Assembly: GCA_035529375.1 (NCBI GenBank)
Contig: DATKWU010000005.1
Span: 521-64,520, forward strand
Direction: 5' to 3'
Source of the DNA: Patescibacteria group bacterium
Lineage (GTDB): Bacteria > Patescibacteriota > Microgenomatia > PFEM01 > JAHIFH01
Length of the DNA stretch: 64,000 bases
The position numbers and the translations under genes are program-made. Shown here in pieces: positions 31,915-47,350 of this stretch. How positions within the stretch are numbered: the first letter of the stretch is position 1; each line of letters opens with the position of its first letter. A model generated the notes under the pieces. That model was not told the origin of the DNA, ran no database searches, and saw nothing but the letters and a program-made list of their open reading frames with translations.

Positions 31915-32160
31915 TTATTTTTTACCCATACTAGCTGCAAACCAATTAGAACCATCATAATACTCCAGACTGTTGGTTTGCAAGTTAAATCCCAAGATTC
32001 CCTGTTTGGCCTTTTTTGGTCTCTCCCCTGTTTTCCAGGAGGCAATTTTGGGCATGCCGAGCATTAAGAATAAGTCTTGACCGATATTTAGCAGGAGCGG
32101 ATAACTCTTTTCCATTTTGACTTCACATCCATTGTATAGACTTTTTTCTTTTGGTGTCAA
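31915..32160 (-). CDS. Small (81 aa) protein whose C-terminal ~50 aa are homologous to the C-terminus of the adjacent giant Ser/Pro-repeat protein
   Basis: PKIASWKTGERPKKAKQGILGFNLQTNSLEYYDGSNWF aligns with SIPSWNTTGRPKKAKKGTFGFNVESKTLEFWNGTSWL of ORF 32191-36333. Confidence 0.5.
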   Translation of the reverse strand: MTPKEKSLYNGCEVKMEKSYPLLLNIGQDLFLMLGMPKIASWKTGERPKKAKQGILGFNLQTNSLEYYDGSNWFAASMGKK

Positions 32161-32190: not shown

Positions 32191-35100
32191 TTAGCTGATT
32201 TTTTTCATTGGCAATTTCAGCCAAGAAGTTCCATTCCAGAACTCCAATGTTTTGCTTTCCACATTAAAGCCAAAAGTGCCCTTTTTAGCTTTCTTGGGCC
32301 GGCCAGTAGTGTTCCAAGAAGGAATGGAAACAGCCTTTAAGCCTAAATAACCCCTCTTGCTAACAACTTCCCTACCAACAATGAGGGGGTGTTTGTTAAA
32401 GATAACTGGCGCCGGAGGCGGAGTAGGAACAGGCCGAGGACTGGGCGAAGCTGAAGGTGAGGGGCTAATACTGGGTGAAGGTGTTGGTGAGGGTGAACCC
32501 GGTGTTGGTGAGGGTGATGGCGATGGGCTGGGGCTAGCAGACGTCGGTGAGGGTAGTGAGGGTGATGATGAAGGCGATGGAGATATTGAGCCACTGAGTG
32601 AGACCGACGGACTAAGACTAACGAGAATCGACGGTGAAACGCTTGGACTAATTGAGGCTGAGGGGCTGAGACTGGGTGAAACACTTGGACTAACTGATGC
32701 TGATGGACTAACGCTGGGTGAAACGCTTGGACTAACTGAAGCAGACGGACTGACCGATGGACTAGCCGAGGGGCTAAGCGATGGGCTGGCTGAAGGGCTA
32801 ACACTTGGACTAACTGAAGCAGAAGGACTAACGCTGGGTGAAACACTTGGACTAACTGATGCTGATGGACTGACACTTGGACTAGCCGAGGGGCTAAGCG
32901 ATGGGCTGGCTGAAGGGCTAACTGAAGGGGAAACACTGGCTGACGGAGAAACGCTAGGACTGACCGATAGACTGACCGAGGGACTCAGACTCGGTGAAAC
33001 AGACGGACTCAGACTCGGAGAGACACTTGGTGAAACTGACGGACTTAAAGAGGGACTAGCCGATGGTGAAATACTGGCACTCGGACTAAGGGAGGGACTA
33101 ACGCTTGGTGAAATTGAAGGAGACAAACTGGGACTCAAACTGGGAGATACCGAGGCAGATGGTGAAACACTTGGCGATATCGAAGGCGAAACCGATGGGC
33201 TTACTATCGGAGACAGACTTGGCGATACACTCGGTGAAATTGAAGGCGAGACCGAAGGGCTAGCACTCGGTGATACTGATGGACTAATACTGGGTGAAAT
33301 TGAAGAAGATACTGAAGCACTTGGTGATACCGATGGACTCACACTGGGTGATACTGAGGGACTAATTGACGGACTGACTGATGGTGAAGCAGATGGGCTA
33401 ACACTTGGAGAAACACTCGGTGAAACACTTGGACTGACGCTCGGCGAAACCGAAGCAGATGGTGAGACACTCGGCGATACTGAAGGAGAAAGCGATGGGC
33501 TCGCACTAGGTGAGGCCGACGGACTAATTGATGGGCTTACGCTTGGAGATGCGCTTGGTGATACTGAAGGGCTAATTGATGGTGATATCGAAGCCGAGGG
33601 AGATACTGAGGGGCTGATACTCGGAGAAACGGAAGGAGAAACTGATGGACTAACACTTGGAGAGACACTGGGGCTAATACTCGGGCTAACCGATGGCGAA
33701 ACACTAGGTGAAACACTTGGGCTGATCGAAGCAGAAGGACTAATTGATGGTGAAGCTGATGGGCTAATTGATGGTGAAGCAGAGGGAGATGCCGATGGTG
33801 AAACACTTGGACTAGCGCTTGGAGAAACACTGGGCGATACAGAAGCTGAAGGAGAAACGCTCGGACTCACAGAGGGTGAAATACTGGGTGAGACTGATGG
33901 ACTAGCTGATGGACTCACAGAGGGTGAAATACTGGGTGAAACTGAGGGACTAGCGCTTGGACTAATACTCGGACTGACTGAAGCGGAGGGTGAGACTGAT
34001 GGGCTGACAGATAGACTGGCACTGGGTGAAACAGACGGACTTACAGACGGTGAAACACTTGCCGATGGAGAGACTGAGGGTGAGATTGATGGCGAGACAG
34101 AGGGACTGACTGAGGGAGATGCCGATGGTGAAACTGATGGACTAGCGCTTGGACTAACACTCGGACTCACAGAGGGTGAGACACTGGGTGAGACTGAAGG
34201 TGAAACACTTGCCGATGGGCTGACTGACGGACTGACTGAAGGACTCACACTAGGTGAGACTGATGGGCTGACAGATACACCGATAGAGGGTGAAACTGAT
34301 GGACTTACTGAAGGCGAAACAGATGGACTGACACTGGGTGAAACTGAAGCCGATGGACTGACTGAAGGGCTGACTGAAGGTGAGACTGATGGACTAACTG
34401 ACGGAGAAACAGATGGACTGGCACTGGGTGAGACTGATGGGCTGACTGACGGAGAAGCAGATGGAGAAATTGAAGGTGAGACGCTGGCACTCGGTGAAAC
34501 GGATGGGCTTACCGATGGACTAACTGAAGGTGAAACTGAAGGAGAAACGCTAGGTGAAACACTCGGAGAAACAGACGGACTCACAGAGGGTGAGACACTT
34601 GCCGATGGAGAGACTGAAGGTGAAACTGATGGCGAGATAGACGGACTGACCGAGGGAGATGCCGATGGCGAAACAGATGGACTAGCGCTTGGACTAACGC
34701 TCGGACTCACAGAAGGTGAAACACTGGGTGAGACTGACGGTGAAACACTAGCTGATGGAGAGACTGAAGGTGAAACTGAAGGTGAAGCACTCGGAGATAC
34801 ACTCGGGGAAACTGAAGGCGAAACAGATGGACTAGCGCTTGGAGAAACAGACGGTGAAACACTTGCTGATGGACTAACTGAAGGAGAAACGCTGGGTGAA
34901 ACCGACGGGCTAGCGCTTGGACTAACGCTCGGACTGACTGAAGCGGAGGGTGATACTGACGGACTCACAGAGGGTGAAACACTGGGTGAGACTGATGGAC
35001 TAACTGAAGGCGAAACAGATGGACTAGCGCTTGGAGAAACACTGGGCGATACAGAAGCTGAAGGTGAAACGCTCGGACTCACAGAGGGTGAGACGCTGGG

Positions 35101-36333
35101 GCTTACTGAAGGACTTATAGATACACCGATAGAGGGTGAAACGCTTGGAGAGACAGACGGCGAAGCAGAAGGACTGACCGACGGTGAAACGCTTGCCGAT
35201 GGACTAACTGACGGGCTGACCGATGGTGAGACGCTGGGTGAGACTGATGGACTTACAGACGGACTGGCACTAGGACTCACTGAAGGACTAACTGAAGGAG
35301 AAGCAGAAGGACTGACTGAAGGTGAAACACTTGCGCTCGGTGAAACAGACGGACTGACCGAGGGTGAGACGCTGGGGCTGACAGACGGGCTCACACTGGG
35401 TGAAACTGATGGACTAACGCTTGGAGAGACAGACGGCGAAACGCTTGCTGATGGACTGACACTGGGACTCACTGAAGGACTAACTGAAGGAGAAACCGAT
35501 GGACTGACTGAAGGAGAGACTGAAAGCGAGACTGAAGGGCTAACACTCGGCGAAACACTCGGAGAAACCGATGGACTGGCTGAAGGTGAAATACTGGGAC
35601 TCACTGAAGGACTAACTGAAGGGCTCACACTAGCTGAGGGAGAAACTGATGGTGAAACCGATGGGGAAATCGATGGTGAAACAGATGGACTGACCGAGGG
35701 GGAAATCGATGGTGAAACAGATGGACTGACCGACGGGCTAGCACTTGGCGAAACACTCGGGGAAGCTGAAGGAGAAACCGATGGGGAAACACTGGGAGAG
35801 ACACTTGGACTGGCTGAAGGACCAGATGCCGTCAAAACCTGCGAGTGGGATTTATCTGTATCCAAAGGAATTATGGCGCCGGCAATTTTGACCCGGAAAT
35901 AATAGGTGGTGCTAGAAGAAACATTGGCCGTCGGGACAATACAAACATCAAATTCGTTATTCTTTTTTTTAGTAACCGCGCAAGTATAAGTACCGCTTTC
36001 AATGTATTGCCCTTGCGAGGTGGTGTCAGTCAAAAGCCATTGCCCAACCACAGGTGGAGAAGGATTCCCTTCGGTTGCTTGACCATCGGCATAATTCCAG
36101 TGATTAGCAGCACCAAAAGACGTCCAACCATCAATATCATTAAGGGAATACTCCATCGTCCAAGCCCCACTCCCGTTTGTGTTACCTGTTTCCCCAATAC
36201 GGATTCTCAATCTGGTCTTGTTGATATTATTGGGTAAGGTTGGCTTGGTATTTTCATTAGCCAGCTGGCTTGATGGTTCGATACCATCGTCCTGAAACCA
36301 TTTCCAATTTCCTTGGTTGGGTGTAAATGCCAT
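32191..36333 (-). CDS. Giant (1380 aa) protein: N-terminal ~170-aa globular domain, ~1100 aa of tandem [V/A/I/L]SPS tetrapeptides, Pro-rich linker, conserved ~55-aa C-terminal domain
   Basis: The non-repetitive N-terminus (MAFTPNQGNWKWFQDDGIEPSS...YYFRVKIAGAIIPLD) has no obvious signal peptide. About 275 VSPS/ASPS/ISPS/LSPS units follow. Then PSPSPSPTPGSPSPTPSP...PVPTPPPAPV. The C-terminus is shared with ORF 31915-32160. Confidence 0.8.
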   Translation of the reverse strand: MAFTPNQGNWKWFQDDGIEPSSQLANENTKPTLPNNINKTRLRIRIGETGNTNGSGAWTMEYSLNDIDGWTSFGAANHWNYADGQATEGNPSPPVVGQWLLTDTTSQGQYIESGTYTCAVTKKKNNEFDVCIVPTANVSSSTTYYFRVKIAGAIIPLDTDKSHSQVLTASGPSASPSVSPSVSPSVSPSASPSVSPSASPSVSPSVSPSISPSVSPSVSPSISPSVSPSVSPSASVSPSVSPSVSPSISPSASPSVSPSVSPSVSPSVSLSVSPSVSPSVSPSVSPSVSPSVSPSASVSPSVSPSVSPSVSPSVSPSVSPSVSPSVSPSVSPSASVSPSVSPSASPSVSPSVSPSASPSVSPSVSPSVSPSVSPSVSPSASVSPSVSPSASPSVSPSVSPSIGVSISPSVSPSVSPSVSPSVSPSASVSPSVSPSASPSVSPSVSPSVSPSVSPSVSPSVSPSASVSPSVSPSASPSVSPSVSPSVSPSASVSPSVSPSASPSVSPSVSPSVSPSASPSVSPSVSPSASVSPSVSPSVSPSVSPSVSPSASPSVSPSASPSVSPSISPSVSPSVSPSASVSPSVSPSVSPSVSPSVSPSVSPSVSPSVSPSVSPSASVSPSISPSASPSVSPSVSPSASPSVSPSVSPSVSPSVSPSVSPSASVSPSVSPSVSPSVSPSVSPSIGVSVSPSVSPSVSPSVSPSVSPSASVSPSVSPSVSPSVSPSVSPSASPSVSPSASPSVSPSVSPSISPSVSPSASVSPSVSPSVSPSASLSVSPSVSPSASVSPSISPSASPSVSPSISPSVSPSASPSVSPSISPSVSPSVSPSASVSPSVSPSASPSVSPSASPSASPSISPSASPSISPSASISPSVSPSVSPSVSPSISPSVSPSVSPSVSPSVSPSISPSVSPSASISPSISPSVSPSASPSVSPSISPSASPSASPSLSPSVSPSVSPSASVSPSVSPSVSPSVSPSVSPSASPSVSPSISPSVSPSVSPSVSPSASVSSSISPSISPSVSPSASPSVSPSISPSVSPSLSPIVSPSVSPSISPSVSPSASVSPSLSPSLSPSISPSVSPSLSPSASISPSASPSLSPSVSPSVSPSLSPSVSPSLSPSVSLSVSPSVSPSASVSPSVSPSASPSLSPSASPSVSPSASVSPSVSPSVSPSASVSPSVSPSASPSLSPSASPSVSPSASVSPSVSPSVSPSASVSPSVSPSLSPSASISPSVSPSILVSLSPSVSLSGSISPSPSSSPSLPSPTSASPSPSPSPSPTPGSPSPTPSPSISPSPSASPSPRPVPTPPPAPVIFNKHPLIVGREVVSKRGYLGLKAVSIPSWNTTGRPKKAKKGTFGFNVESKTLEFWNGTSWLKLPMKKIS
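32370..35820 (-). repeat. About 3.4 kb coding minisatellite: tandem 12-nt units (plus-strand register about GGTGARACNGAT/GGACTRACTGAA) encoding the SPS tetrapeptide array, ending in a Pro/Ser-rich tail
   Basis: 12-nt periodicity with many imperfect copies is visible throughout 32.44-35.83 kb. Shadow ORFs appear in several frames and on both strands. Confidence 0.9.
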
Positions 36334-36558: not shown

Positions 36559-37665
36559 TTACTGTGCCGGACGTCGATAATGGGCAAGGCCAATTTCTAG
36601 ATGCTGGATAGTGGATTGAGCCGAAAAAATCACCCCGGAGGAAGGCAAGGATGATTTTTTCCTAGCCGGTTTGGTAGCGATATGTTTTGAACTGAGTTTG
36701 GCTTCTTTAGTTTTGAGTTTTTTCAAATCTTCATCGGTCCAACCTTTAACCGGCCAGAATTTCTCCACCAACCAAGAAACCGGATGCTTCTGATCTGGCA
36801 AACCCTTCAAGATTTGTTCCCAGACTTTTTTTCTGACCTCGTGCTGATCCTTACCTGAAGCAGGCCAAGGAAAACTAAAAGTGGCGTTTTTCGTCCGAAA
36901 CATATGGGCATACCAAGTTTGGTGGTTAACCAGCACCCGGCCACCTTTCAACCAGGTTTTACAAGCGACTTCAATGCCTTGATGTCCCCAATTGCCAAGC
37001 GTTTCATCACACAAATTCCAATCCCAATATAATTGACGCAGACACATAAAACATGATCCTTGAATTGACATTATTTCGGTTAATCCCTTCTCCTTCTTAT
37101 CTTTTTTGTATTCTGGCCGGCGGCGATATTCACCAAAATAAGCAAATGTGGGTTGAGCGTCAAAACAATAGGAATCGCTCTGGGGCCGCTCTTTGCCGAT
37201 CCAAAGCATTTTTTTCTTCATTTTGTTCCCACAAGCAGGACATTTGGGTTCCCGATCTTGGTAAACTCGCTTGCCGCATTTATAGCACTTCCAGTCATAA
37301 GCCCACAGATTTCTCATCACCGGAAGCATCACCACTTTTTCATCCACTTTTCGGAAAGCCTCAATCATTTTTCTATCAAAACCCTTATCAAATGAACAAT
37401 GAGCGTCCAATTTCATCACGTATTTGGCCCGGCTTAAGCGACAGGCCAGATTCTGAGCCGCCCTTTGGCCAATCGCCGGATTAACATAAATTAGACTCAC
37501 CCGATCATGTTGTTCTATGGGTGAGTTGGCCCATTGGCCATCTAAAACAGCAATCACTTCCGTATCGGCCTCGATATTTTTTAAAATATCCTCGATCGTG
37601 TTTTCCAGGAATTCCTCATTCCTGGCTGGTATTAAGATTGACAAATCACGCATAACCGACAGCAA
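36559..37665 (-). CDS. Family 2 glycosyltransferase (GT-A) with an inserted Cys4 zinc-ribbon and a Lys-rich C-terminal tail
   Basis: N-terminal LSILIPARNEE...VIAVLDGQ...KLDAHCSF (GT2 DxD/DAH region). CYKCGKRV...CPACGN insertion. Paralogous to ORF 44525-45331 (QGSC-W, GG-L-VN--TW-AH). Confidence 0.7.
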   Translation of the reverse strand: MLSVMRDLSILIPARNEEFLENTIEDILKNIEADTEVIAVLDGQWANSPIEQHDRVSLIYVNPAIGQRAAQNLACRLSRAKYVMKLDAHCSFDKGFDRKMIEAFRKVDEKVVMLPVMRNLWAYDWKCYKCGKRVYQDREPKCPACGNKMKKKMLWIGKERPQSDSYCFDAQPTFAYFGEYRRRPEYKKDKKEKGLTEIMSIQGSCFMCLRQLYWDWNLCDETLGNWGHQGIEVACKTWLKGGRVLVNHQTWYAHMFRTKNATFSFPWPASGKDQHEVRKKVWEQILKGLPDQKHPVSWLVEKFWPVKGWTDEDLKKLKTKEAKLSSKHIATKPARKKSSLPSSGVIFSAQSTIQHLEIGLAHYRRPAQ

Positions 37666-38053
37666 TAACCGCTATTGGCCGTAAATTAGTGCCAAGAGCT
37701 TTTGCCACCCTCCTTTCTCTAAAAGCCCCAATCCAAACTGAGGCCAAACCCATCTCAACTAATAACAGTTGTAAATAAGCACCACAAATAGTCGCGTCTT
37801 GGATTGAATACAAATTCCTACCTCTGTCTCCATACCTTTTGGCGTAAGCTTCTGGGTTGGTACAGATTACGAGATACAGCGGCGCGTCTAAGGAAATAAC
37901 CTTTTCTTTGGTGGCAATTACCTCAAAACCCCTAATTCCCCCGGCTGATGGCCCAGTTTTGGCTAAAGCAATCAACTTCGTCAAATCTGGCACTTCTTTT
38001 TCTTTAAATACCCTAATTGATTTTCTTTTTTTAATTACTTCTTTAAGTTCCAT
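37646..38053 (-). CDS. Short nitroreductase-family-like protein (135 aa)
   Basis: N-terminal KKRKSIRVFK motif (compare RRS-R-F of nitroreductases). C-terminal WIGAF...IAVIAVGYA. Overlaps the downstream GT2 start by 20 nt. Shorter than typical family members. Confidence 0.4.
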   Translation of the reverse strand: MELKEVIKKRKSIRVFKEKEVPDLTKLIALAKTGPSAGGIRGFEVIATKEKVISLDAPLYLVICTNPEAYAKRYGDRGRNLYSIQDATICGAYLQLLLVEMGLASVWIGAFRERRVAKALGTNLRPIAVIAVGYA

Positions 38054-38540
38054 CTAGTTCACAAAACTTTATTAATGCCTCAATAATCGCTTTGTTGTAA
38101 GAATCTATCAATTTCTTGTTGTATTTTCCTTTCCAGCTTTTTAATATTTTTTTTGGTTTTCTAAAACAACAGATTAAGTAAACGTCGTTGCTCAAATGGG
38201 GCAAATACTTGTCAACCGTAAAAGCCGATCTAGGGTCTTTCCAGCCCCAAAAATCAGCCTTTTTTCTTTTAATTAACTGCTTAATTTCTTGTGTCCAATC
38301 TTTATCAGGATGACGGATCATTAACTTATTTAGTTTCAAAAAATCTGGATCTTCATAAAAATCCTTATTATATGTTTTTACTTTTTTTCCACCCCTTCTA
38401 TCCCAGTTAAAACCCTTCTTCACACTACCCATCTTTACTCCCCCTATTTCAAGGAGTTTAGAAATAAACGAAGTCGCCGAGTTGGGACAACCAAGCACTA
38501 TATAAGTCTTTTCTTCCTTGCTGTGTATTTTAATCGTCAT
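38043..38540 (-). CDS. P-loop sulfotransferase-like protein (tentative)
   Basis: Preferred start at the internal Met (MTIKIH...), which gives an ATGA overlap with the upstream gene. YIVLGCPNSATSFISKLL resembles the PAPS-binding 5'-PSB loop of sulfotransferases. Otherwise no clear motif. Confidence 0.35.
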   Translation of the reverse strand: MTIKIHSKEEKTYIVLGCPNSATSFISKLLEIGGVKMGSVKKGFNWDRRGGKKVKTYNKDFYEDPDFLKLNKLMIRHPDKDWTQEIKQLIKRKKADFWGWKDPRSAFTVDKYLPHLSNDVYLICCFRKPKKILKSWKGKYNKKLIDSYNKAIIEALIKFCELDGT

Positions 38541-39343
38541 ATTATTCCATTTTTTTTGAACAATTTTTTTAATCTTTTGGTAACTAATGGCTTGCCTAGC
38601 CTGTTTTTTCCGTAAACGCAAACTTCCAGATTAGCGTTCTCTGACTCCCGGTCAACCGGCCTCCTATCGAAGGGGTGAAAGTGAATCACTTTCAGTGGTT
38701 TGTCGGCAATCTCATAAGTTTTAACAATATCTCTTCTTCTGGTCGCAAAATTATAGGTGATGTTGATTCGGTTGATTCTCTTTTTCAAATATTGGAATCT
38801 TTTTTTCTTGAGAATGTCCAGCAAGACGACTTCCTCGTTAGCCCGATAGGCGTCGGTTGTCCGCTTCCAAATATCGAAAATATATTCCGCCTTCGTGTCA
38901 AAGAATATCGTTCCCGTACTCCACCTTTTATCTAGCGTAAAATGAATAACCGTCTTGCCGTAATCAGTCAAAGCCAAATCGTAACCATCAAGCATTTGTT
39001 TCGCCTCGCCTTCAGTTATTTTTTGGAGCTGGAAAGCATCGTTGTCGTGATACCAAAAAATATCATCGCTGATAATGCCCATGTTATACAGGGTAATAAT
39101 CGCATTAATTTTAGTCGCTGTCGGTTTGATATGGTTGAAATTATCATCCCCAATGACCAATGCTTTAACCCCTTCATACTCGTAATCAAAGCTGGTCACC
39201 AATAAAATGTCTTTCCGTTTCCACCCCAACTCCAAACTGTTATCAATCTGGATTTTTATCAAAGACTCAACCTCACTACTCCAGTTGTACTGGTCACTTA
39301 CAAAACTTCTGTTTGGACTGATGTAAATTAGTAAGTTTTTCAT
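38537..39343 (-). CDS. Putative nucleotide-sugar glycosyltransferase-like protein (DxD-containing, family unassigned)
   Basis: Preferred start MKNLLIYISP gives an ATGA overlap with the upstream methyltransferase gene. YHDNDAF is a DxD-like motif. Rich in W/Y/K, like its neighbours. Confidence 0.35.
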   Translation of the reverse strand: MKNLLIYISPNRSFVSDQYNWSSEVESLIKIQIDNSLELGWKRKDILLVTSFDYEYEGVKALVIGDDNFNHIKPTATKINAIITLYNMGIISDDIFWYHDNDAFQLQKITEGEAKQMLDGYDLALTDYGKTVIHFTLDKRWSTGTIFFDTKAEYIFDIWKRTTDAYRANEEVVLLDILKKKRFQYLKKRINRINITYNFATRRRDIVKTYEIADKPLKVIHFHPFDRRPVDRESENANLEVCVYGKNRLGKPLVTKRLKKLFKKNGII

Positions 39344-39957
39344 TTGATCCAAAACCAACTTGGGCAACGGTCGCTGTCTTTTCCAATAACATACCAATTC
39401 TTTATCCTATTAGCCTGGGTATAGGCATCAACCGCAAACTTGACCTGCATATTTTCCCAAGCCCAAGGTTGCTTTCTCTTTTTAAAGTCCTCTGGATGAA
39501 TATAATCATGTCCAGCAATCGTCCCACCCTTCCTGACTTTCTTTGACCAACCATCAATGTCCTCAGCCACATACTTTAAAATATGATTGCCGTCAATATA
39601 AACAAAATCCAAACTCTCATTCTCAAAGTTCTTTAAAGCCTCCATCGAGGTTTTTCTCACAACGGTAGCGTTTTCGTAACGGGATAAAAGTTTCCAAGCC
39701 CGATGATAAAGATATTCTTGTCTCTCTACTCGGGCGTCTTCTACTCGATCAAAGCCGGGATAGGGTGTCCAATAATCTATGGCGTAAATTTTCAATCCCG
39801 CCTTACAAAACTTTCTAGAAAACCAGCCTTTGTAAACTCCGATTTCTGCTCCGATTTGGTAACCCATTTCCTTAAAAAAGCCAGGTAAATCATTTCGTGA
39901 AGAACCGGGAATCACAAAAGGGTTGTCTTGGTGTTTAATTCCTTTAATTATTTTCAT
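39340..39957 (-). CDS. Class I SAM-dependent methyltransferase, TylF/MycF (macrocin O-MT)-like
   Basis: FFKEMGYQIGAEIGVYKGWFS (motif I-like), IDYW, GGTIAGHDY. Size of 205 aa is typical of TylF-family sugar O-methyltransferases. Confidence 0.55.
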   Translation of the reverse strand: MKIIKGIKHQDNPFVIPGSSRNDLPGFFKEMGYQIGAEIGVYKGWFSRKFCKAGLKIYAIDYWTPYPGFDRVEDARVERQEYLYHRAWKLLSRYENATVVRKTSMEALKNFENESLDFVYIDGNHILKYVAEDIDGWSKKVRKGGTIAGHDYIHPEDFKKRKQPWAWENMQVKFAVDAYTQANRIKNWYVIGKDSDRCPSWFWIK

Positions 39958-39958
39958 T

Positions 39959-40630
39959 CTATTTTTTGTAAATTTCTTTCACTCCTTTCATTAAACTCGC
40001 CCTTACTTTCTTGCCGTTTCCCCAATAAGGCAAGTCGTAAATCGGCGCTCTTTCGGAATGGGTATAGTACCTCATACTCCGATGGGTTTTAACTTGAAAC
40101 ACAGGGTTTTTTGTTTTCCAATAATAAATCTTGTCAAAAATATCGTCTTTCTTTGTTCTCTCTTTGGGAAAGTTCTTTTCTTCTACTGACCACTGAGGCA
40201 ATCCTTTAAACTGTTCACCTAATACCTTTAGATAATATTTTCTGCCGATAACTTGGGCGTGGGTTGCCCCTTCCTTTTTGTAAAACCAGTAATTCCGGTG
40301 ATCACCCATGACATAGACATTCGAGTTTCGGTAACACCGATCCAATTCTCTTGGTCTGAAGGTAAAATAATCGGGAGGATACATGCAGTCGGCCTCGGCC
40401 GAGATGACGAAATCGGCCTTTGTGTTTTGACAGCCTATTTGAATTTGCCTGAACATATTAAAATTAGAAGCGCCCACGTTGCCGATGCAGATGTTTTTCC
40501 CAAAGTTAATCGGTTCTTGAGAAACGCTAATAATCGGCAAATCAGTCACTTTCAAAATGTTTGCTTTGATCCTATTTTCAAACTCAGGGTGCTCCTGATT
40601 GCTAGTGTAGTATATAATAGTTGCCGTCAT
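39959..40630 (-). CDS. Unknown-family protein; paralogue of ORF 41610-42272 (candidate GT-A-like transferase)
   Basis: Shares IISVSQEPINFGKN / IITISRKPLDWGKN, AEADCMYPPDYFTFRP / ADDDTLYPEQHFQFRP and C-terminal YDLPYWGNGKKVR / YDIPIWGKAKNLR with ORF 41610-42272. Confidence 0.5.
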   Translation of the reverse strand: MTATIIYYTSNQEHPEFENRIKANILKVTDLPIISVSQEPINFGKNICIGNVGASNFNMFRQIQIGCQNTKADFVISAEADCMYPPDYFTFRPRELDRCYRNSNVYVMGDHRNYWFYKKEGATHAQVIGRKYYLKVLGEQFKGLPQWSVEEKNFPKERTKKDDIFDKIYYWKTKNPVFQVKTHRSMRYYTHSERAPIYDLPYWGNGKKVRASLMKGVKEIYKK

Positions 40631-41649
40631 GTTAGCTTTTGATATAGTTTGACTACGTTTTCAATATGATATGGTTCCGCCATTTTGATTAATTTTTCAG
40701 GCCATTGATCGTATTCTGCTTTTAACTTTTTAACTCCTGCCAGCAGTTCTTTCATATTGTTGGCAGGCAGATAGTAACCTTCAATTTCTTTGTAGCTTTT
40801 TAGCGGGTAGGCAACGGTAGGAACTCCAAATGAGGCGGCATTGATAATTTTAGTGGGTGTTTTGTGAATGCTCTGATCTCCCAACTCCCAGCCCCCGATT
40901 ACCAAAATGTCAATGTTTTTGTAAAAATTAGCAGCATCTTCCCTCCCTTCAAACTTAAAACAAGTAACAAAATCAAAACCTATTTCTTTAACGGCCCTCC
41001 CTATTCGCCCATATATTTCTCTCGCAATTGGCGAAACGCTTCCGGTATATCCACAAGTATTAACTTCCTTCCGTTCTCTTCTTTGCCCTTCCCAATTGAG
41101 GTGGTGATGAGGGATAAGAACGACTTTGTTCGCTAAATGATTTTTCAGCCAATCGTAACTTCTCTTTGAGGCGGCGATTAAATTAATCCCTGGTCTTTTT
41201 TTCAGCTTTTTAATAAACTTGCCTCCATCCAAAACATCTACCCAGTCGCCATCCTCAATATCGTCTAAATTACTTGGCTTAAGATAAATGCAGACATCGT
41301 TCTTGTATTTTTTCTTTGGGTTAATTCTGGCACCCAAAAACTTAGCCATCTGATATCCTCTTATTTCTGTTGAAAGATAGCCTCCATGCTTCTTAGGCCA
41401 AAAAATGCTAATCATCCTTTCTTTGATATTCCTTCTTTCATCGAAATATTCGTTGATAGCATTGACCAGCTCTGAACTAAATCTTTTTAAATCCTGAAGT
41501 TCCTTGGCGTCTTTTTTTGTGCGTTTATCTCTTTGAACTTTATCGACCAAATGAAATATTTTAATGTTGGTTATTCCCAGTTCGTCAATTAATGCTCCTA
41601 TTGTCTTTTTCATACAAACTTTCTCCTTAAATTTTTTGCTTTTCCCCAA
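40627..41649 (-). CDS. GT-B (family 1-like) glycosyltransferase, tentative
   Basis: C-terminal region DILVIGGWELGDQS...KIINAASFGVPTVAYP resembles the nucleotide-sugar-binding half of GT1 enzymes. The N-terminal ~60 aa are Lys-rich. Confidence 0.4.
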   Translation of the reverse strand: MGKSKKFKEKVCMKKTIGALIDELGITNIKIFHLVDKVQRDKRTKKDAKELQDLKRFSSELVNAINEYFDERRNIKERMISIFWPKKHGGYLSTEIRGYQMAKFLGARINPKKKYKNDVCIYLKPSNLDDIEDGDWVDVLDGGKFIKKLKKRPGINLIAASKRSYDWLKNHLANKVVLIPHHHLNWEGQRRERKEVNTCGYTGSVSPIAREIYGRIGRAVKEIGFDFVTCFKFEGREDAANFYKNIDILVIGGWELGDQSIHKTPTKIINAASFGVPTVAYPLKSYKEIEGYYLPANNMKELLAGVKKLKAEYDQWPEKLIKMAEPYHIENVVKLYQKLT

Positions 41650-42272
41650 ATGGGAATATCATAAGCTCTTACTGGCCAAGGATATTTTCTTCTTCTTTGA
41701 TTTAATTTATCCATCGATTTCTGGTGGTAAAAACTAACTACTGGCGCTTTGGTATAAAATGTTTCAGCTTTTATCAAATCATATTTAAGCATTACCCGTT
41801 TATCTCCTAATTCCCCATGTAAACCATGACGCATCTTATCCAAGTTTTGAAGCCTATTTTCAATTGCTTTTATTATTGCGTTACGAGTGGCTATCATCAA
41901 CCCACCACCACAACGGGGCTTATGAAAATAGTATGATCTCCCCCATGTAAAAAGATGCCACCTATTCAGATTGTAAAAGAACCCTTCTTTATTTGGTCTA
42001 AATTGAAAGTGTTGTTCAGGATAAAGAGTGTCATCGTCTGCTATGGCTATGTAGGGAGTTTTAGCTAGCTTTGCCCCCCTTAACTTTTGCTCAAAGAGAT
42101 TTACTACCCCGTATTCCGTCTGAATCAAGTTCTTTCCCCAATCTAATGGCTTGCGTGAAATAGTAATTATTGGGCAACCACCAGACGCTTCCAATAGTTT
42201 TTCCTTATGAAACTCCGCCCACTTTTCAGGCACTAGGTTTGGTGTACACATTATTATTGTTAAATCCTTCAT
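41610..42272 (-). CDS. Unknown-family protein; paralogue of ORF 39959-40630
   Basis: See the paralogue entry. ADDD and W-rich motifs. Confidence 0.5.
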   Translation of the reverse strand: MKDLTIIMCTPNLVPEKWAEFHKEKLLEASGGCPIITISRKPLDWGKNLIQTEYGVVNLFEQKLRGAKLAKTPYIAIADDDTLYPEQHFQFRPNKEGFFYNLNRWHLFTWGRSYYFHKPRCGGGLMIATRNAIIKAIENRLQNLDKMRHGLHGELGDKRVMLKYDLIKAETFYTKAPVVSFYHQKSMDKLNQRRRKYPWPVRAYDIPIWGKAKNLRRKFV

Positions 42273-42553
42273 AGTAGTTTTCGGTAAAAATCTTTATTTA
42301 TCTTGGTAAAACCTACCTTCTCATATAATTTTTTGGCTGGTAGATTATCTTTATTCACTACCAATTCTACTGAATCCACATTTTTATCTTTAGCCAATGC
42401 CAATGCCTTATCAAGCAATTCAGTTCCAATGCCCATTCTCCGATGTGCCTTCTCGACTTCAACCACATCTATTATCATCACGTTAGCCTTCCCATTGTTA
42501 TAGAAAGTGCATAAACACGACCCGCTTTTTACCTTTATTTTTTGCTGTTCCAT
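42269..42553 (-). CDS. Small GNAT-family N-acetyltransferase
   Basis: Motif A region VEKAHRRMGIGTELLDKALALAK; 94 aa. Overlaps the DegT gene end by 19 nt. Confidence 0.6.
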   Translation of the reverse strand: MEQQKIKVKSGSCLCTFYNNGKANVMIIDVVEVEKAHRRMGIGTELLDKALALAKDKNVDSVELVVNKDNLPAKKLYEKVGFTKINKDFYRKLL

Positions 42554-43614
42554 TTATTAAATGTCTCCCCTATGTAATTAACATCTTCTATCGTTATCCG
42601 ACTATGAAGCGGAAGATAGAAATACTTATCTTCCAACCTATTCATATTCGGCAATTCCTGTTTCTTCTTACCAAACACTTCAAAGATGTCGTTCCTCAGT
42701 TGAACCAAGTCGCACTCAATGCCATTCTCTCGAAGGTATCTTATTAGCTCATCCCTTTCGTCTGACAGAATCATAAATAGCCAATAAGAACCACCACATA
42801 TCTTCCTATAAGAGGATAACTTTTTCATATAGGCTTCACATAAAGTTTTCCTGTACTCTAGGATTTCGTCTGTGTATTTAAGTCCTATTAATCCCAAGGT
42901 GGCGGCGATATCGTTCATATGGAACTTATAACCAGCCTCTTTAATTTCTTGAGCCATCTGGTGATTAACAACGCATCTCCACCCTGCTCGCTTTTTGGCT
43001 TCTCTGTCAATACCAAACCACCTTAATCTTTTAGCCCGATTGTAAATCTGTTTATTCCTAACCACCAACATCCCACCATCACCAGTAGTAAAATGCTTAA
43101 TCGCCTGAAAAGAGTAACAAATATAATCCCCATAGTCCTCACTTATTCCAAGTGACTGGGCAGCATCTATTACAACTGGCACTCCGTAACGCTTGGCGAT
43201 AGTAAAGATTCTCTTATCAACCTGAAGTCCACCCAAATTGACTACCACCAATGCCTTTGTTTTGTTACTTATTTTTTTCTTGACATCATCATAGTTCACC
43301 AAAAAATCTTCGTTAATATCTAAAAAATTAATATTGGCTTCTCTGTGGAGTAACGGCAGATTAGTTGCGGTACAAGTAAAAACAGCAGTTAAAACTTCAT
43401 CACCGCTCCCAATCCCGATAAGATGATATGCTAGTTCCAAGGCAGCCGAACCACTATTTACGCCTAGGCAATATCCATAGCCAAATTTCTTCCCAAAGGC
43501 TTTCTCAAATTCCTCTACTTTCGGTCCTTGCCCAAGCCATCTGGTATCGAATATCTTGGATAACTCCTCTAACCATTCTTCTTTATATATTTGTGGATGA
43601 AATAACTGAATCAC
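42535..43614 (-). CDS. DegT/DnrJ/EryC1/StrS-family PLP-dependent sugar aminotransferase
   Basis: GDEVLTAVFTCTATN, DAAQSLG, SFQAIKHFTTGDGGMLVV (PLP-lysine context). 359 aa. Confidence 0.8.
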   Translation of the reverse strand: MIQLFHPQIYKEEWLEELSKIFDTRWLGQGPKVEEFEKAFGKKFGYGYCLGVNSGSAALELAYHLIGIGSGDEVLTAVFTCTATNLPLLHREANINFLDINEDFLVNYDDVKKKISNKTKALVVVNLGGLQVDKRIFTIAKRYGVPVVIDAAQSLGISEDYGDYICYSFQAIKHFTTGDGGMLVVRNKQIYNRAKRLRWFGIDREAKKRAGWRCVVNHQMAQEIKEAGYKFHMNDIAATLGLIGLKYTDEILEYRKTLCEAYMKKLSSYRKICGGSYWLFMILSDERDELIRYLRENGIECDLVQLRNDIFEVFGKKKQELPNMNRLEDKYFYLPLHSRITIEDVNYIGETFNKWNSKK

Positions 43615-44537
43615 TATACCCTCCTTACAATTGTTGTCTTGTAACCAAGATGTTCCAAAATTTCCTTTCGGTGGTTGCCGTCAAGGATTTTGTAATGCTT
43701 ATTAACGATAATCGGCTCCTTGATGCCAAACTTTTTAACATCCCAATACATTCTTACCTTGTCATACATCCATTTTTCCAAATCCTCTCGTGGCTTGCGT
43801 CGGTGTTTTTTACAAAACATCTTAAAATATCTGGTCTGTAGAGGATGAACTCCTTGGTCTAATTCCGAATAATACATTCCCTGAACGTGATTACCCCTGA
43901 GCAACTTATTTAGTTCCACCCTTTCTAAACATGGGTTTTTAAAGCAATAAGATTCCAAACTCCTCGGGCGGGGATCGTCCTCCGTTGAGAGTTGGGGAAC
44001 ATGGCTAACTAACTCCCAATTTTTAAAATACCTTAAGATATTATGTTTATATCCTGAGGCCATACAAAAGTATTCTTTTTTACGAATGGCGGTGATAATG
44101 CAATACCTTGCCTTTTTTTGGAGGATATCCAATAAATCAAGCCATTCCTGAACCAACAAATAGTAGTGCGAGTTGATAAAGGACATGTAGTCAGCCACAG
44201 GTATCGCATCGATCAAATCCTGCATCCGACCACATCTCAAACTATACCTACCGCTAACTTTGGCCTGATAAGCCAATCCTCTTTCAACCGCTTCAGGATT
44301 AAATTCAGTCCCTACCACTCTCTCAAACCCCATATCTTCAGCAAATTTCAAAAACAAACCAGCATTGGTACCCATATCTACATAGGTTAGGCCTTTAACG
44401 TTCCCGTTAAAGTGGGGAACGACATAATTATTCCACTTACTTTTGCCCCAAAACTTACTGTTAATCTGTTTATCAGTCAGATCAGTTTTAACCCCATCCT
44501 CTAAATACTGGTAGTTAGTAAATTTCATTTGAACCAC
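43614..44537 (-). CDS. SAM-dependent methyltransferase-like protein (FkbM-like motif I) with a C-terminal domain of unknown function
   Basis: YVDMGTNAGLFLKFAEDMGFERVVGTEFNPEAV resembles methyltransferase motif I/II. C-terminal ...LDGNHRKEILEHLGYK unassigned. Confidence 0.4.
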   Translation of the reverse strand: MVQMKFTNYQYLEDGVKTDLTDKQINSKFWGKSKWNNYVVPHFNGNVKGLTYVDMGTNAGLFLKFAEDMGFERVVGTEFNPEAVERGLAYQAKVSGRYSLRCGRMQDLIDAIPVADYMSFINSHYYLLVQEWLDLLDILQKKARYCIITAIRKKEYFCMASGYKHNILRYFKNWELVSHVPQLSTEDDPRPRSLESYCFKNPCLERVELNKLLRGNHVQGMYYSELDQGVHPLQTRYFKMFCKKHRRKPREDLEKWMYDKVRMYWDVKKFGIKEPIIVNKHYKILDGNHRKEILEHLGYKTTIVRRV

Positions 44538-45331
44538 TTAGGTACAATTTCTTTTTCATAATAATCACGCCAAATTTTTAAAGTGTAAGCAAACCCATCT
44601 CTAGCTTCTTGGCCACCGTAGCCATGAGTCCGGGGGAATTTGCGGTGTTTGTGGGCGTGCCAAGTGTTTTTGTTGACCATCAACTTTCCGCCCGCTTGCC
44701 AAGTTTTGAACTGCATTTCGTGTGAATCTTGGTAGTGGGTTCCATACCCTCCGCTTTGCAGTTCGCCAATGACCTCATCCCACCATTTTTTCTTCATCAC
44801 CCAACAAGACCCCTGCATTGCCATCGTTTCATCCAACACGATTTCTTTCCTTTCTTTAGCTCTCCTCGGCCAATTAAGACCTGAAAACTTTTCTGTTTTG
44901 CCTCCTTTACCATCGCTGACTTTGCCGATAATTAACTTCATATAATCAACTGGGGGAATATCCATTACCTCCCATTTCTCAACATCCAGAAAGTAGCGTC
45001 TTGGGGTAACAATCCAGCTGTGTTTAATTTGGGAAGTTAATATCTTGTCATAGCCTTTGGCAAAAGTGGCGTGTTCGTCTGTCCGCATAATGTATTTGCC
45101 CCGAGCAACTCTTATACCGCAGTTGATGGCGTTCCTCATGCCCTGATTTTTGCCAAGATGAATCACTCTTAGGCGGGGGTCATCTTTTAATTGGGGGTTG
45201 GGCCAATAGCCGTCCAAAATAGCGATTACCTCAAGTCTTTCTCCCAAGACAGAGTTTGCCAATAGAGAATCGGTCGTCTTTTGGAGCAGAGGATCCTTGT
45301 AACTTGGAATGATCACCGATAGATTTATCAT
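44525..45331 (-). CDS. Family 2 glycosyltransferase (paralogue of ORF 36559-37665)
   Basis: LSVIIPSYKDP...VIAILDGYW...RTDEHATF. Shares QGSCW and WQAGGKLMVNKNTWHAHKH with the paralogue. Confidence 0.7.
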   Translation of the reverse strand: MINLSVIIPSYKDPLLQKTTDSLLANSVLGERLEVIAILDGYWPNPQLKDDPRLRVIHLGKNQGMRNAINCGIRVARGKYIMRTDEHATFAKGYDKILTSQIKHSWIVTPRRYFLDVEKWEVMDIPPVDYMKLIIGKVSDGKGGKTEKFSGLNWPRRAKERKEIVLDETMAMQGSCWVMKKKWWDEVIGELQSGGYGTHYQDSHEMQFKTWQAGGKLMVNKNTWHAHKHRKFPRTHGYGGQEARDGFAYTLKIWRDYYEKEIVPKWFK

Positions 45332-45413: not shown

Positions 45414-46064
45414 TTATAGGAAGACTCGATCATAGTAATCGTATTTCAGGTTTTCTCGAATATTCCAGCTGTTAGGAAAGTTTGATTGGCCTTTGGTATA
45501 ACGGAAAGAGCCCGCACCGCCTTCTTTCATAATAAACCAATTGCCTTTTGTGTCGATGAATCCGAAATAAGAGATTTCACTTTCGTCTATCTCGACAATT
45601 TGATAACCATCGGTGGGTTGAGTTTCGGCGGGATGGATCGTTTCGCCAGTGGGGGCTTTGAGAGCCATGACTCCTGAATCTGGAGCTCCTCCTATTAGCA
45701 AACCCTCAGTCTTTCTGGCAAGAATGGAGTAGATGAAGTAAGAAATGCCAGCACCGGCGGCTAATTTGAGAAAGGCACGCTTGTCGAGATCGACAATCAC
45801 GGGCTTCTCTGCCTTCTCTTTTTTTTCATTTACTGATGGAGGTGGGGTTGATAATTTTTGGGAGTGAATAACATTGGCTTTCCGCGGAAAAAGGATTAAG
45901 CCAAAGTAGACTAGTAAGGGATAGAAGACAGCAACAATGATCAATTGTTTGTAAGAAACGGCAGTGATAAAAGCAACTACCACTGCCAAGATAGCAATGA
46001 TAAAAATGGGGTAAAACATAAAATGTCTTTTGTTCAGGACGGTATTTGTATGTGTTTGTTGCAT
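45414..46064 (-). CDS. Membrane protein of unknown function (N-terminal two TM helices, C-terminal soluble domain)
   Basis: Hydrophobic N-terminus MFYPIFIIAILAVVVAFITAVSYKQLIIVAVFYPLLVYFGLILF. No motif recognised. Confidence 0.5.
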   Translation of the reverse strand: MQQTHTNTVLNKRHFMFYPIFIIAILAVVVAFITAVSYKQLIIVAVFYPLLVYFGLILFPRKANVIHSQKLSTPPPSVNEKKEKAEKPVIVDLDKRAFLKLAAGAGISYFIYSILARKTEGLLIGGAPDSGVMALKAPTGETIHPAETQPTDGYQIVEIDESEISYFGFIDTKGNWFIMKEGGAGSFRYTKGQSNFPNSWNIRENLKYDYYDRVFL

Positions 46065-46078: not shown

Positions 46079-47350
46079 TTATATTTCTTCTACTAATAGT
46101 TCTACAACGCTTGCTGATATAAAAGCAGTTGACCCATTATCGAGTTTAATTTCGTACCAACCTGAATTTTCGGAAACAAATTCAAAAGTGTCACCGTTTT
46201 TAGCTTCACCAATTACTTTTGAATCAGTTGTTGGACTTTGGCGAATGTTAGCGCTGGCTGATTCATCAATTTTAACTACCAGCATTGAGGTCTGTCCTAA
46301 AATTTGCGTTGAGGTCTGTTCCGGAGTTTGTGTAGGGGCCTGTTCCAAGGTTTGTGTAGAAGTCCGTCTTAAAATTTGTGTTGAAGCCTGTCCTAAAGCT
46401 TGTGTTAGAGACTGTTTCAAAGTTTGTGTTGAGACCTGTTCCGAGGCCTGATGGATGAGAGTGAGTATAGGGTTGTTTCTTTGGGTGGAGGAAAACCGAA
46501 TGTTCAGAAAACTAGAAGTAAAAAGAACCGCGAAGAAAAAAGAAGCGGCAGCAAACTCAGGGATCCTTTGGTAGATTTTTAATGGAGCGTAAGCCACTGT
46601 TCCTCTGGTAACGTTTCTCTTTGCAAGCGTAAGCATATTCTTTTCAAGATAGCCTGATTCTTTTTCAATAATTATCCTTTCAAGTAATCTTTTTTCCCTT
46701 TGGTTGAGGTTATATTTTTCAACAAAATCTTTATAGCTTTTAATGCCTTTAAGAAACTCATTTTTAAAATTTTCAAAAAATGATAAGACGGTACTTGCTT
46801 TAACCCAGGAAGTTTTTCTTTTACCCAAATAGTCTGCATAAGATGAATAACTGTCAATTAAATTATTACCTTTTTCTTCTTGGAGATGTTGGTGGAGGTA
46901 ATGAGTCATGTTTAGCAGACAGGTGGCATCATTGATAGATACTGATTTATAAGGTCCGCCGAAAAGAGAACCTTGACGCTGATATTTTTTATTGAAATAG
47001 ATAGAGTATTTTGTTGATAGAGACCTCATAAAACCCTCAAGAGAGTCTTTGGCGATTGGACATAAGAGCAAATGAAAATGATCAGGTGTTAGACAATAAG
47101 CAATTAGTTCAACTTTATTGAAATAATTTTTAGGTTGATGCGGTACGCCCCGAAAAGCGCGCCCTTTGACAGTGAAGGTTTTCTGGAGATCTTCAGATTT
47201 TTTGGGAAGAGTCAAATAGTCCTCCAGATGACTAAGAAAAACTTCGTAATCCTGTTTATCATTAAAGATGATTCCGTTTGCAATCCCCCGATTGTAGACA
47301 TGAAAGTAAATTTTACCTTTATTTGTTTTTTTAAGGCCTTGAGCAGTCAT
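46079..47350 (-). CDS. HuH-Y1 (IS200/IS605 TnpA-like) transposase-like domain fused to a hydrophobic segment, a Gln/Thr-rich octapeptide repeat and a C-terminal bacterial SH3-like domain
   Basis: N-terminus KGKIYFHVYNRG...LTPDHFHLLL (HuH) ...KKYQRQG. Middle TQTLKQSLTQALGQASTQILRRTSTQTLEQAPTQTPEQTSTQILGQTS. C-terminus KVIGEAKNGDTFEFVSENSGWYEIKLDNGSTAFISASVV (SH3b-like). Confidence 0.6.
   Translation of the reverse strand: MTAQGLKKTNKGKIYFHVYNRGIANGIIFNDKQDYEVFLSHLEDYLTLPKKSEDLQKTFTVKGRAFRGVPHQPKNYFNKVELIAYCLTPDHFHLLLCPIAKDSLEGFMRSLSTKYSIYFNKKYQRQGSLFGGPYKSVSINDATCLLNMTHYLHQHLQEEKGNNLIDSYSSYADYLGKRKTSWVKASTVLSFFENFKNEFLKGIKSYKDFVEKYNLNQREKRLLERIIIEKESGYLEKNMLTLAKRNVTRGTVAYAPLKIYQRIPEFAAASFFFAVLFTSSFLNIRFSSTQRNNPILTLIHQASEQVSTQTLKQSLTQALGQASTQILRRTSTQTLEQAPTQTPEQTSTQILGQTSMLVVKIDESASANIRQSPTTDSKVIGEAKNGDTFEFVSENSGWYEIKLDNGSTAFISASVVELLVEEI
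46283..46452 (-). repeat. About seven tandem ~24-bp coding repeats (GAGGTCTGTTCC-RRG-TTTGTGTT-like) encoding the TQ-rich octapeptide repeat
   Basis: Direct 24-nt periodicity is visible. The shadow ORF 46188-46451 on the plus strand reads as a VCVEVCS repeat. Confidence 0.8.

Follow-up and report, generated by a model that had tools for sequence, protein, structure and literature searches.

A glycosyltransferase-bounded gene module beside a Ser-Pro-Ser repeat protein in Patescibacteria and their phages: a candidate cytoplasmic protein O-glycosylation operon

The stretch of DNA analysed here (hereafter the window; 64,000 nucleotides of contig DATKWU010000005.1, positions 521 to 64,520, assembly GCA_035529375.1) is a fragment of a bacterial chromosome that bears the hallmarks of the candidate phyla radiation (CPR), or Patescibacteria, with the housekeeping genes tatC, mnmA, rho, radA and S1. 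These ultrasmall bacteria account for a large part of bacterial diversity, spend their lives attached to other cells and have for the most part escaped cultivation, and little is known of the coat on their surface or of the structures that their phages recognise. At 36559-45331 (8.8 kb) the minus strand carries an island of twelve co-directional open reading frames (ORFs), first described in an earlier note made from the sequence by eye, in which two glycosyltransferases (GTs), named GT27b (44525..45331, at the 5' end of the island) and GT27a (36559..37653, at the 3' end), bracket a cassette of sugar-modification genes. The arrangement proved to be real: JGI and Logan metagenome contigs hold identical copies of the region, and their gene calls yield the same twelve-gene set. 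With the best-supported starts, six of the eleven junctions are ATGA overlaps (44528, 42272, 41613, 40630, 39343 and 38540), as the note had described for several of them, and the other five are overlaps (1, 8, 11 or 19 nt) or a gap of a single nucleotide; given such tight junctions, the island looks like a translationally coupled unit. A scan of the operon for consensus promoters and terminators gave counts not above those of shuffled sequences. Only 226 bp downstream of GT27a, on the same strand, lies the gene for a giant protein built largely of Ser-Pro-Ser (SPS) repeats (32191..36333).

Both boundary enzymes had been read as paralogous members of glycosyltransferase family 2 (GT2), one of them with a four-cysteine insertion. 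Their paralogy is borne out (29% identity, E=5e-29) and both match PF00535, but by profile and predicted fold they are closest to the polypeptide N-acetylgalactosaminyltransferases (ppGalNAc-Ts) of family GT27. GT27b is a soluble protein of 268 residues with a ppGalNAc-T-like GT-A domain and an invariant D85-x-H87, while GT27a, also ppGalNAc-T-like, has 364 residues, the corresponding D83-A-H85 and zinc-ribbon matches in addition to PF00535, its Cys4 insertion being a zinc ribbon that is conserved in the GT27a family. The best sequence matches of both enzymes in the PDB are ppGalNAc-Ts (GalNAc-T4/T1 for GT27a), and a profile of 15 GT27b homologues retrieves GalNAc-T4 (PDB entry 5nqa) as the best match over the whole catalytic domain (E=6.8e-10), whereas bacterial and other GT2 structures match this profile only in the N-terminal, nucleotide-binding half. 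The AlphaFold2 (AF2) model of GT27b has a mean predicted local distance difference test (pLDDT) score of 94.9, and in a Foldseek search of this model against the PDB, which gave 580 significant matches, the best 50 are without exception ppGalNAc-Ts (E~1e-15, TM scores of 0.65-0.75). The invariant D-x-H motif (D85-E-H87 in GT27b) aligns in both enzymes with that of GalNAc-T4/T1, and so does the region of the Gal/GalNAc-T motif (WGGENxE; here D202-S-x-E205 and WxAGG), with H227/H229 conserved, the WGG not conserved and the register of the His ambiguous. In the viral structure library BFVD the nearest fold matches of GT27b are proteins of uncultured phages, at no more than 19% identity, several of them labelled as belonging to the GlcNAc (Skp1-type polypeptide GT) family. 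Profiles and models together suggest that the boundary enzymes are GT-A glycosyltransferases of the Mn type (D-x-H), the closest relatives of which are the eukaryotic ppGalNAc-Ts.

The SPS giant, the probable acceptor of these enzymes, has 1,380 residues, 42% of which are Ser. An N-terminal domain of 172 residues is followed by 254 SPS[V/A/I/L] units at residues 175-1298 and by a C-terminal domain of ~80 residues. This last domain is conserved in the SPS giants found downstream of GT27a in four of the related loci from genomes, metagenomes and viral contigs that we designate by L-numbers (L060, L093, L099 and L122), and in the same four the giant is followed, as in the window, by a small gene for a paralogue of this domain; that of the window (31915..32160, minus strand) encodes 81 residues (38% identity to the C-terminal domain, E=2e-15). 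Instead of the giant, some automatic gene calls choose a 1,181-codon ORF on the plus strand (32357-35902), which was rejected as a mirror-frame artefact of the repeat and no gene.

The association between island and repeat protein extends well beyond the window, which answers a question raised in the earlier note, namely whether the same island stands beside S/P-repeat proteins elsewhere. Over 202 non-redundant related loci, the density of ORFs rich in Ser, Pro and Thr is 2.10 per 10 kb over the 3 kb that follow the islands and 0.92 over the 3 kb that precede them, compared with 0.17 farther out in the flanks and 0.01 within the islands themselves, so that SPS-repeat proteins are enriched ~12-fold directly downstream. 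At least five tandem SPSx units, dominated by SPSV, SPSI, SPSL and SPSA, are present in 93 of 112 such ORFs, and the ORFs with at least five units lie on the island strand without exception (108/108). Homologues in capsule or lipopolysaccharide loci, a setting that the note had regarded as telling against a link to a glycoprotein, were not seen.

Between the two boundary enzymes, and likewise on the minus strand, the cassette begins with a 304-residue class I S-adenosylmethionine (SAM) methyltransferase that carries a C-terminal ParB/Srx-like domain with a DGNHR motif (43614..44528; PHROG ParB-like, 1e-5). The profile of its family (A7) retrieves PRMT-type methyltransferases (8e-5) and the ParB-domain nuclease 5k5a (1.4e-3) from the PDB, and its Pfam match to Methyltransf_23 is weak; the label 'FkbM-like' once given to this protein could not be substantiated, since its matches to class I methyltransferases are weak and the ParB-like domain had been overlooked by that label. 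It is followed by a pyridoxal phosphate (PLP)-dependent sugar aminotransferase of the DegT family (42535..43614; GTG start with a strong ribosome-binding site), confirmed by PF01041 over positions 4-359 of 360 (E=2e-65) and closest in the PDB to 4zwv/4xau, CalS13 and ArnB, which we take to be C4 aminotransferases. Pfam also bears out a small GNAT N-acetyltransferase of 94 residues (42269..42553; PF00583, E=3.6e-15), a SAM methyltransferase of the Methyltransf_24 type with 205 residues (39340..39957; PF13578, E=5.5e-16), which is probably a sugar O-methyltransferase, and a short nitroreductase-fold protein of 135 residues (37646..38053; PF00881, E=1.2e-18). The last of these is not a gene fragment, as it lies directly upstream of GT27a in L009, L010, L060, L143 and L208 as well.

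Two proteins of ~220 residues assigned earlier to an unknown family are indeed paralogous to each other (26% identity, E=1e-18): paralogue B (41610..42272), with a D-D-D motif, and paralogue A (39959..40630), with E79-x-D81 and an AF2 model of pLDDT 89.2. Their family (A2), which has no Pfam model, comprises more than 2189 members, all annotated as 'hypothetical' and none with a Pfam domain. A Foldseek search of the family model against the PDB retrieves SpsA, GalNAc-T1, WrtF and other GT-A enzymes (E=3e-6 to 1e-4), with the conserved E-x-D or D-D-D at the position expected for a DxD motif; on the strength of this model the pair is assigned to a divergent GT-A glycosyltransferase fold. Between them lies a protein of 328 residues with an N-terminal DUF4254-like helical segment (40627..41613), for which the description as 'GT-B-like' is kept as a weak one, its matches to Glyco_trans_1_4 (E=2e-3) and to DUF4254 (3e-4) both being below the Pfam cut-offs. 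The former 'DxD protein' (268 residues; 38537..39343) does have an invariant H99-D100-x-D102, together with H221-F222, in its family alignment (A3), and no Pfam or PDB relatives of it were found; it is a putative glycosyltransferase. Finally, a small P-loop-like protein of 165 residues (38043..38540), with G-x-P-x-S-x-T-S and W-G-x-K motifs, had been called sulfotransferase-like, a label dropped after it matched nothing in Pfam, NCBIfam, PHROGs or the PDB. Profile searches of the PDB gave nothing significant for the paralogue, H-D-x-D, GT-B-like (A8) and P-loop families, and profile-profile comparison of the same four with GT27b revealed no relation.

The island is one example of a widespread module. 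Homologues of GT27b number more than 2,100 at 60-76% identity, a search of 50%-identity representatives gave 231 clusters at E<=1e-30, and GT27a is 54-88% identical across CPR; the loci found comprise 50 from genomes, more than 562 metagenome matches to GT27a and 131 viral (IMG/VR) contigs. The nearest genome relative is L009, the GT27b of which is 91% identical, and others belong to Daviesbacteria, Woesebacteria, Roizmanbacteria and several lineages of Parcubacteria. A single architecture, with GT27b at the 5' end, a variable cassette and GT27a at the 3' end, recurs in complete islands of 2.9-12 kb, of which the non-redundant set numbers 93 and draws on CPR genomes, metagenomes and viral contigs. 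Most of the 93 encode a paralogue-type GT-A and a Methyltransf_24 protein, about half an H-D-x-D protein, often in two or three copies, and 14-20% each a GT-B-like protein and a methyltransferase-ParB protein, while DegT with GNAT, the nitroreductase and the P-loop protein are each found in no more than 8% (the P-loop protein in 3/93). Every component type is present in the island of the window. In all five complete islands with the DegT-GNAT pair the GNAT gene directly follows DegT, and the next gene is a GT-A of the paralogue-B type (ParB220-type) in four of them and of the paralogue-A type (ParA223-type) in one. In L009 the DegT-GNAT-paralogue B block and the P-loop gene are missing and additional methyltransferases take their place; such a difference despite a 91%-identical GT27b indicates that cassettes are exchanged between close relatives.

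Gene fusions tie the parts of the island together. GT27a is fused to a GT-A domain of the paralogue type (ParA/B-type) in L044 (14447-16069) and L048 (14083-15720), and the tail of GT27a in the window retains a remnant of the first strand of such a domain; fusions of GT27b with a class I methyltransferase also occur. In larger proteins of 700-1,260 residues, GT27-like domains are combined with Methyltransf_24, the GT domain being present twice in most of them, and proteins of 1,000-1,350 residues have two GT27-like domains and in most cases also Methyltransf_24. Besides L044 and L048, the fusions include P0045 and P0246-P0256.

The same module is carried by phages. Two of the viral contigs, L180 and L199, were confirmed as phage by matches to terminase, portal and major head protein, so that the possibility of misclassified cell fragments was rejected. 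The viral gene order runs from terminase, portal and major head protein through an SPS-tailed protein of ~300 residues to the island, which is followed by an SPS-rich protein of 500-1,400 residues, and one of these large proteins matches a PHROG annotated as 'virion structural protein'; by gene order and profile the SPS-repeat proteins of the phages are predicted to be virion proteins. Minimal phage islands consist of 4-6 soluble proteins between virion genes. A further locus, L004, resembles a prophage and includes genes for an integrase, a tail collar and proteins of the endolysin type. In 50,697 deposited phage genomes, no homologue of GT27b was found with a coverage above 46%. When the nearest neighbour of each GT27b sequence is considered, 65 pairs are viral-viral, 36 genome-genome and 13 mixed, which suggests that viral and cellular lineages are mostly separate, with some mixing. 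The copy in the window is chromosomal.

A horizontal origin of the island had been proposed in the earlier note on account of an apparently raised GC content (45-50% as against 25-40% in the flanks), an argument that fails on measurement: the island has a GC content of 0.397 and the rest of the window 0.404 (39.7 versus 40.4%), which places it at the 45th percentile of windows of equal size, and per-gene values do not differ either (0.392 versus 0.382 for the other genes of the window, p=0.19). Bulk GC was consequently rejected as evidence of an island, and in CPR genomes the module is of long standing and syntenic. On the other hand, GC at third codon positions (GC3) is raised (0.405 versus 0.323, p=3e-5) and the codon-usage distance of the island, 0.075, lies ~4.5 standard deviations above that of random gene sets from the same window (0.042 +/- 0.007). 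The shift is a mosaic, with a GC3 of 0.44-0.48 in GT27a, GT27b, paralogue A and the H-D-x-D and methyltransferase-ParB genes and of 0.33-0.37, near the genome level, in paralogue B and the GNAT, P-loop, nitroreductase and GT-B-like genes, and it is not a general trait of such islands in other genomes. Deviating GC3 and codon usage, a cassette that differs from that of L009 and a module held in common with phages weakly suggest horizontal acquisition.

The genes around the island are themselves conserved companions of the module, in the order Y1-SH3, TM216, island, SPS giant, small paralogue, tatA, tatC and mnmA in Microgenomates. TM216 (45414..46064, minus strand) is a membrane protein with two N-terminal transmembrane (TM) helices, an internal, highly conserved twin-arginine-like D-[KR]-R-x-F-L-K-L followed by a hydrophobic stretch, and a conserved C-terminal domain of ~100 residues; it occurs in 26 related loci, in Microgenomates invariably as the gene immediately before the island, and has no Pfam match. 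Its syntenic companion (46079..47350, minus strand) joins an IS200-like Y1 domain (Pfam Y1_Tnp) to a TM segment, a linker rich in Ser, Thr and Gln and an SH3 domain (SH3_3). This gene was considered as the mark of a mobile element and rejected as such, because it occupies the same position upstream of TM216/GT27b in ~20 Microgenomates genomes; the gene bordering the island is thus a conserved syntenic one and no insertion sequence. In Parcubacteria the place of TM216 is taken by a conserved protein of ~200 residues without Pfam match, which has a Cys4 zinc ribbon at its N-terminus and ends in a domain rich in beta structure (L007:9305-9913, with homologues in L010, L014, L024, L034, L040, L042, L044, L047 and L048).

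Directly downstream of the fibre genes lie two tatA-like genes (31668-31898 and 31454-31621), recognised in their translations by a short N-terminal hydrophobic stretch followed by F-G-G, and tatC (30698-31444; Pfam TatC, 1.5e-38), all on the minus strand (30698..31898). Among the fetched flanks, tatC is present in 12 of 50 genome loci, which exceeds the expectation for a single-copy gene in a genome of ~1 Mb, versus 0 of 80 viral loci. The tatA/tatC genes adjoin the module in both CPR lineages (L005, L007, L010, L024, L060, L093 and L099) and in different orders, downstream in Microgenomates and upstream in Parcubacteria, where tatC, tatA and two small genes precede the island and the SPS giant lies a few genes further.

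Farther away on the plus strand, at 7435-15788, are genes for a collagen-like giant of 2,122 residues with DUF2341, the N-terminus of which matches phage-integrase SAM-like domains, and for a membrane protein with Wzy_C and TPR domains (13827-15788; Wzy_C E=1.5e-5, below cut-off). The earlier note had also considered this collagen-like fibre as a substrate of the island, a link that is indirect: the two genes, 20 kb from the island here, are immediate neighbours of the Y1-SH3/TM216/GT27b module in four further genomes (L025, L033, L035 and L037). Just upstream of the collagen-like gene, a 154-codon ORF (6829-7293, plus strand) encodes a phage-integrase N-terminal SAM-like domain alone and may be the remnant of a disrupted integrase. 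A cluster at 48390-52303 (minus strand), made up of two RimK-like ATP-grasp genes, a fusion of ATPgrasp_ST with a retropepsin-like protease and a 7TM_transglut membrane protein, is syntenic with the island module in L009, L043 and L045. The rRNA operon of the window is split (21517-29355): 5S, 23S and tRNA-Ala are on the minus strand, and between 23S and 16S lie, on the plus strand, tRNA-Ile (25452-25526) and an ORF for a TrwB/TraG-like coupling protein of 715 residues (25569-27716).

Taken as a whole, gene content, predicted folds and genomic context lead us to propose, with a probability of about 0.65, that the island is an operon for stepwise cytoplasmic O-glycosylation of the (Ser-Pro-Ser-hydrophobic)n stalk of the adjacent 1,380-residue fibre. 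The suggestion of the earlier note that a modified glycan is made here for the Ser/Pro-rich giant thereby finds support, from the predicted ppGalNAc-T-like character of the flanking enzymes and from the co-occurrence with SPS proteins. We infer the catalytic steps, the acceptor, the sugar identities and the exit route of the fibre as follows. GT27b and GT27a would attach the first sugar or sugars directly to Ser residues of the SPS repeats, after which the GT-A paralogue pair, probably together with the H-D-x-D protein, and the GT-B-like enzyme would extend the glycan. DegT and GNAT would supply an N-acetylated amino-deoxy sugar, to be transferred by the adjacent paralogue-B GT-A, and the two SAM methyltransferases would methylate the product. 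The adjacent Tat genes offer a candidate route for export of the fibre. Since the boundary enzymes are kept while the cassette is reshuffled even between close relatives, strain-specific glycans would result, as in O-antigen loci.

Several observations weigh against this proposal. The similarity of the boundary enzymes to GT27 is remote (~20% identity), and GT-A enzymes of similar fold act on many acceptors. Neither a ricin-type lectin domain (Pfam recognises PF00535 and, in GT27a, the zinc ribbon) nor the TM segment of a type II membrane anchor is predicted in GT27b or GT27a, for which reason they are named GT27-like rather than members of GT27, and by the same token they are likely to be cytoplasmic. 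Four island proteins have no assignable function, and the 64-kb window contains no 4,6-dehydratase or other source of a keto sugar for DegT. The SPS giant displays no signal peptide, TM segment or twin-arginine motif, which leaves its surface display unexplained. An SPS protein lies within 2.5 kb of GT27a in only about a third of the metagenome loci with at least 600 bp of downstream sequence (18/54), many of those without one having further island genes after GT27a. Membrane proteins encoded elsewhere in the window (Wzy_C-TPR, PMT_2 and a YfhO-like GT-C protein), moreover, keep a lipid-linked route conceivable.

Along such a route, the main rival to direct glycosylation of the fibre, the soluble glycosyltransferases would build an oligosaccharide on a polyprenyl phosphate primed elsewhere, which would be flipped and then handed on en bloc, with surface proteins or a wall polymer as recipients, by candidates such as the Wzy_C-TPR protein, the PMT_2 protein (202-1887) or the YfhO-like protein (3728-6013). 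Besides the presence of these three in the same window and the neighbourhood of Wzy_C-TPR and module in the four genomes mentioned above, it can be said in favour of this route that GT2-type enzymes often act on lipid-linked acceptors; the full-length matches of the boundary enzymes, however, are ppGalNAc-Ts and not lipid-acting GT2s. No membrane segment is predicted in any island protein or in the SPS giant. Pfam reveals neither a priming phosphoglycosyltransferase nor a flippase among the twelve island genes of the window, in their flanks or among the genes of L004-L008, nor did labelling of the other islands, 47 phage islands included, bring one to light, the unlabelled ORFs of these other islands not being HMM-scanned. 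This lack in the Pfam-scanned islands, together with minimal phage islands of a few soluble proteins amid virion genes, disfavours the lipid-linked route, as does the assembly of phage SPS proteins in the cytoplasm, and we consider it improbable.

The occurrence of the module on as many as 131 viral contigs also raises the possibility of a domesticated or residual phage module, in other words a chromosomal cassette for phage-fibre glycosylation that serves phage-related ends such as a decoy fibre or the masking of receptors. Cellular and phage SPS giants have N-terminal domain types in common and are alike without signal peptides, L004 is prophage-like, and GC3 and codon usage of the island are atypical for the genome; yet the 64-kb window has no capsid, portal, terminase or tail genes, the chromosomal synteny is stable across Microgenomates, and most GT27b sequences have their nearest neighbour within their own group, viral or cellular, all of which makes this origin somewhat less likely still than the lipid-linked route. 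Very improbable, and also ranked below that route, is a target other than protein, with the enzymes modifying a small molecule or a nucleic acid, for instance in DNA hypermodification. A match of the Methyltransf_24 protein to phrog_2675 ('DNA methyltransferase') and the ParB-like domain of the second methyltransferase hint in that direction, but enzymes that modify bases, phosphorylate nucleotides or bind DNA are missing from the island, large proteins exist in which Methyltransf_24 is joined to GT27-like domains, and the tight, strand-specific association with SPS-repeat proteins would stay unexplained.

If direct O-glycosylation of the SPS fibre is correct, the module provides a concrete molecular candidate for the surface fibres of CPR bacteria and for phage-host recognition, and enzymes of the ppGalNAc-T kind would extend beyond eukaryotes. 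The analysis also defines two or three unannotated protein families, namely the GT-A 'paralogue' family with its more than 2,000 members, the H-D-x-D family and TM216. A more far-reaching scenario, which we regard as speculative and doubtful in its entirety, would have GT27b and GT27a as true polypeptide O-glycosyltransferases, prokaryotic and viral kin of the initiators of mucin-type O-glycosylation in animals, the SPS proteins as bacterial and phage 'mucins', and cells and phages as trading one hypervariable glyco-coat module in an arms race. The fully glycosylated fibre would then leave the cell by way of the neighbouring Tat genes' products, perhaps carried along by TM216 with its twin-arginine motif.

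Among known systems, the eukaryotic ppGalNAc-Ts (GT27; human GalNAc-T2/T4, Toxoplasma GalNAc-T3) resemble the boundary enzymes in their GT-A domain with D-x-H instead of DxD and in mucin-type acceptors with tandem repeats rich in Ser and Pro, as presumed here; the Gal/GalNAc-T motif region can be aligned as well, an acidic residue and a His further on being conserved, although the WGG is not and the register at the His is ambiguous. The island enzymes differ in being only ~20% identical, in having no lectin domain or anchor, in the Cys4 zinc ribbon of GT27a and in being encoded by bacteria and phages.

The Bacillus exosporium protein BclA, a collagen-like filament that carries rhamnose and anthrose, is a further parallel, in that a repetitive surface filament bears an amino-dideoxy sugar, N-acylated and methylated, for which an aminotransferase, an acyltransferase and a methyltransferase are responsible. 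Its acceptor, however, consists of collagen-like GXT repeats, its enzymes and taxa are others, and the collagen-like giant of the window lies 20 kb off. Cytoplasmic glycosylation of Ser-rich repeat (SRR) adhesins is known from the loci of GspB, Fap1 and PsrP, with GtfA/B and accessory Sec, and from the staphylococcal SdgA/SdgB (PMC7948813; PMC3794999). A giant Ser-rich repeat protein beside soluble glycosyltransferases, with a translocase in the same locus, is common to the SRR loci and to the module described here. In the former, on the other hand, the initiating enzymes are GT-B (GT4) and the repeats SASx or SD, as opposed to GT27-like GT-A enzymes and SPS-hydrophobic units; accessory Sec stands in place of the adjacent tatA/tatC and of a fibre without recognisable signal; and methyltransferases, an aminotransferase and a phage counterpart are lacking. 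Conversely, the Pfam families of GtfA/GtfB and SecA2/SecY2/Asp are absent from the island and its flanks.

Phage-encoded glycosylation of virions has been described for cluster F mycobacteriophages such as Che8 (Freeman et al., 2023, as presented in PMC11256854 and PMC12582341). To the extent covered by these accounts, phage glycosyltransferases decorate virion proteins there, as may be the case for the CPR phage island between head genes and SPS-tailed virion proteins, whereas the Che8 genes lie near the genome end and not in the structural block and belong to other enzyme families. The CPR module, in addition, is conserved on the chromosomes of the phylum to which the hosts belong. Giant viruses likewise possess autonomous glycosylation clusters, responsible for the fibril glycans of Mimivirus and including multi-domain GT and methyltransferase enzymes in chloroviruses (PMC4691112). 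In these viruses, too, surface fibrils are decorated by GT-A enzymes in combination with a DegT-type aminotransferase, an N-acetyltransferase and methyltransferases that act on sugars, and GT-GT-methyltransferase fusions occur in both; their hosts are eukaryotic and their acceptors others, and no close sequence relation was found (best BFVD fold matches at no more than 19% identity). No description of the module was found in the literature on CPR protein glycosylation or on bacterial GT27. From all of these systems it is set apart by its GT27-like initiators, by an acceptor made of SPS repeats, by a hypervariable cassette between conserved bookends and by being shared between a bacterial radiation and its phages.

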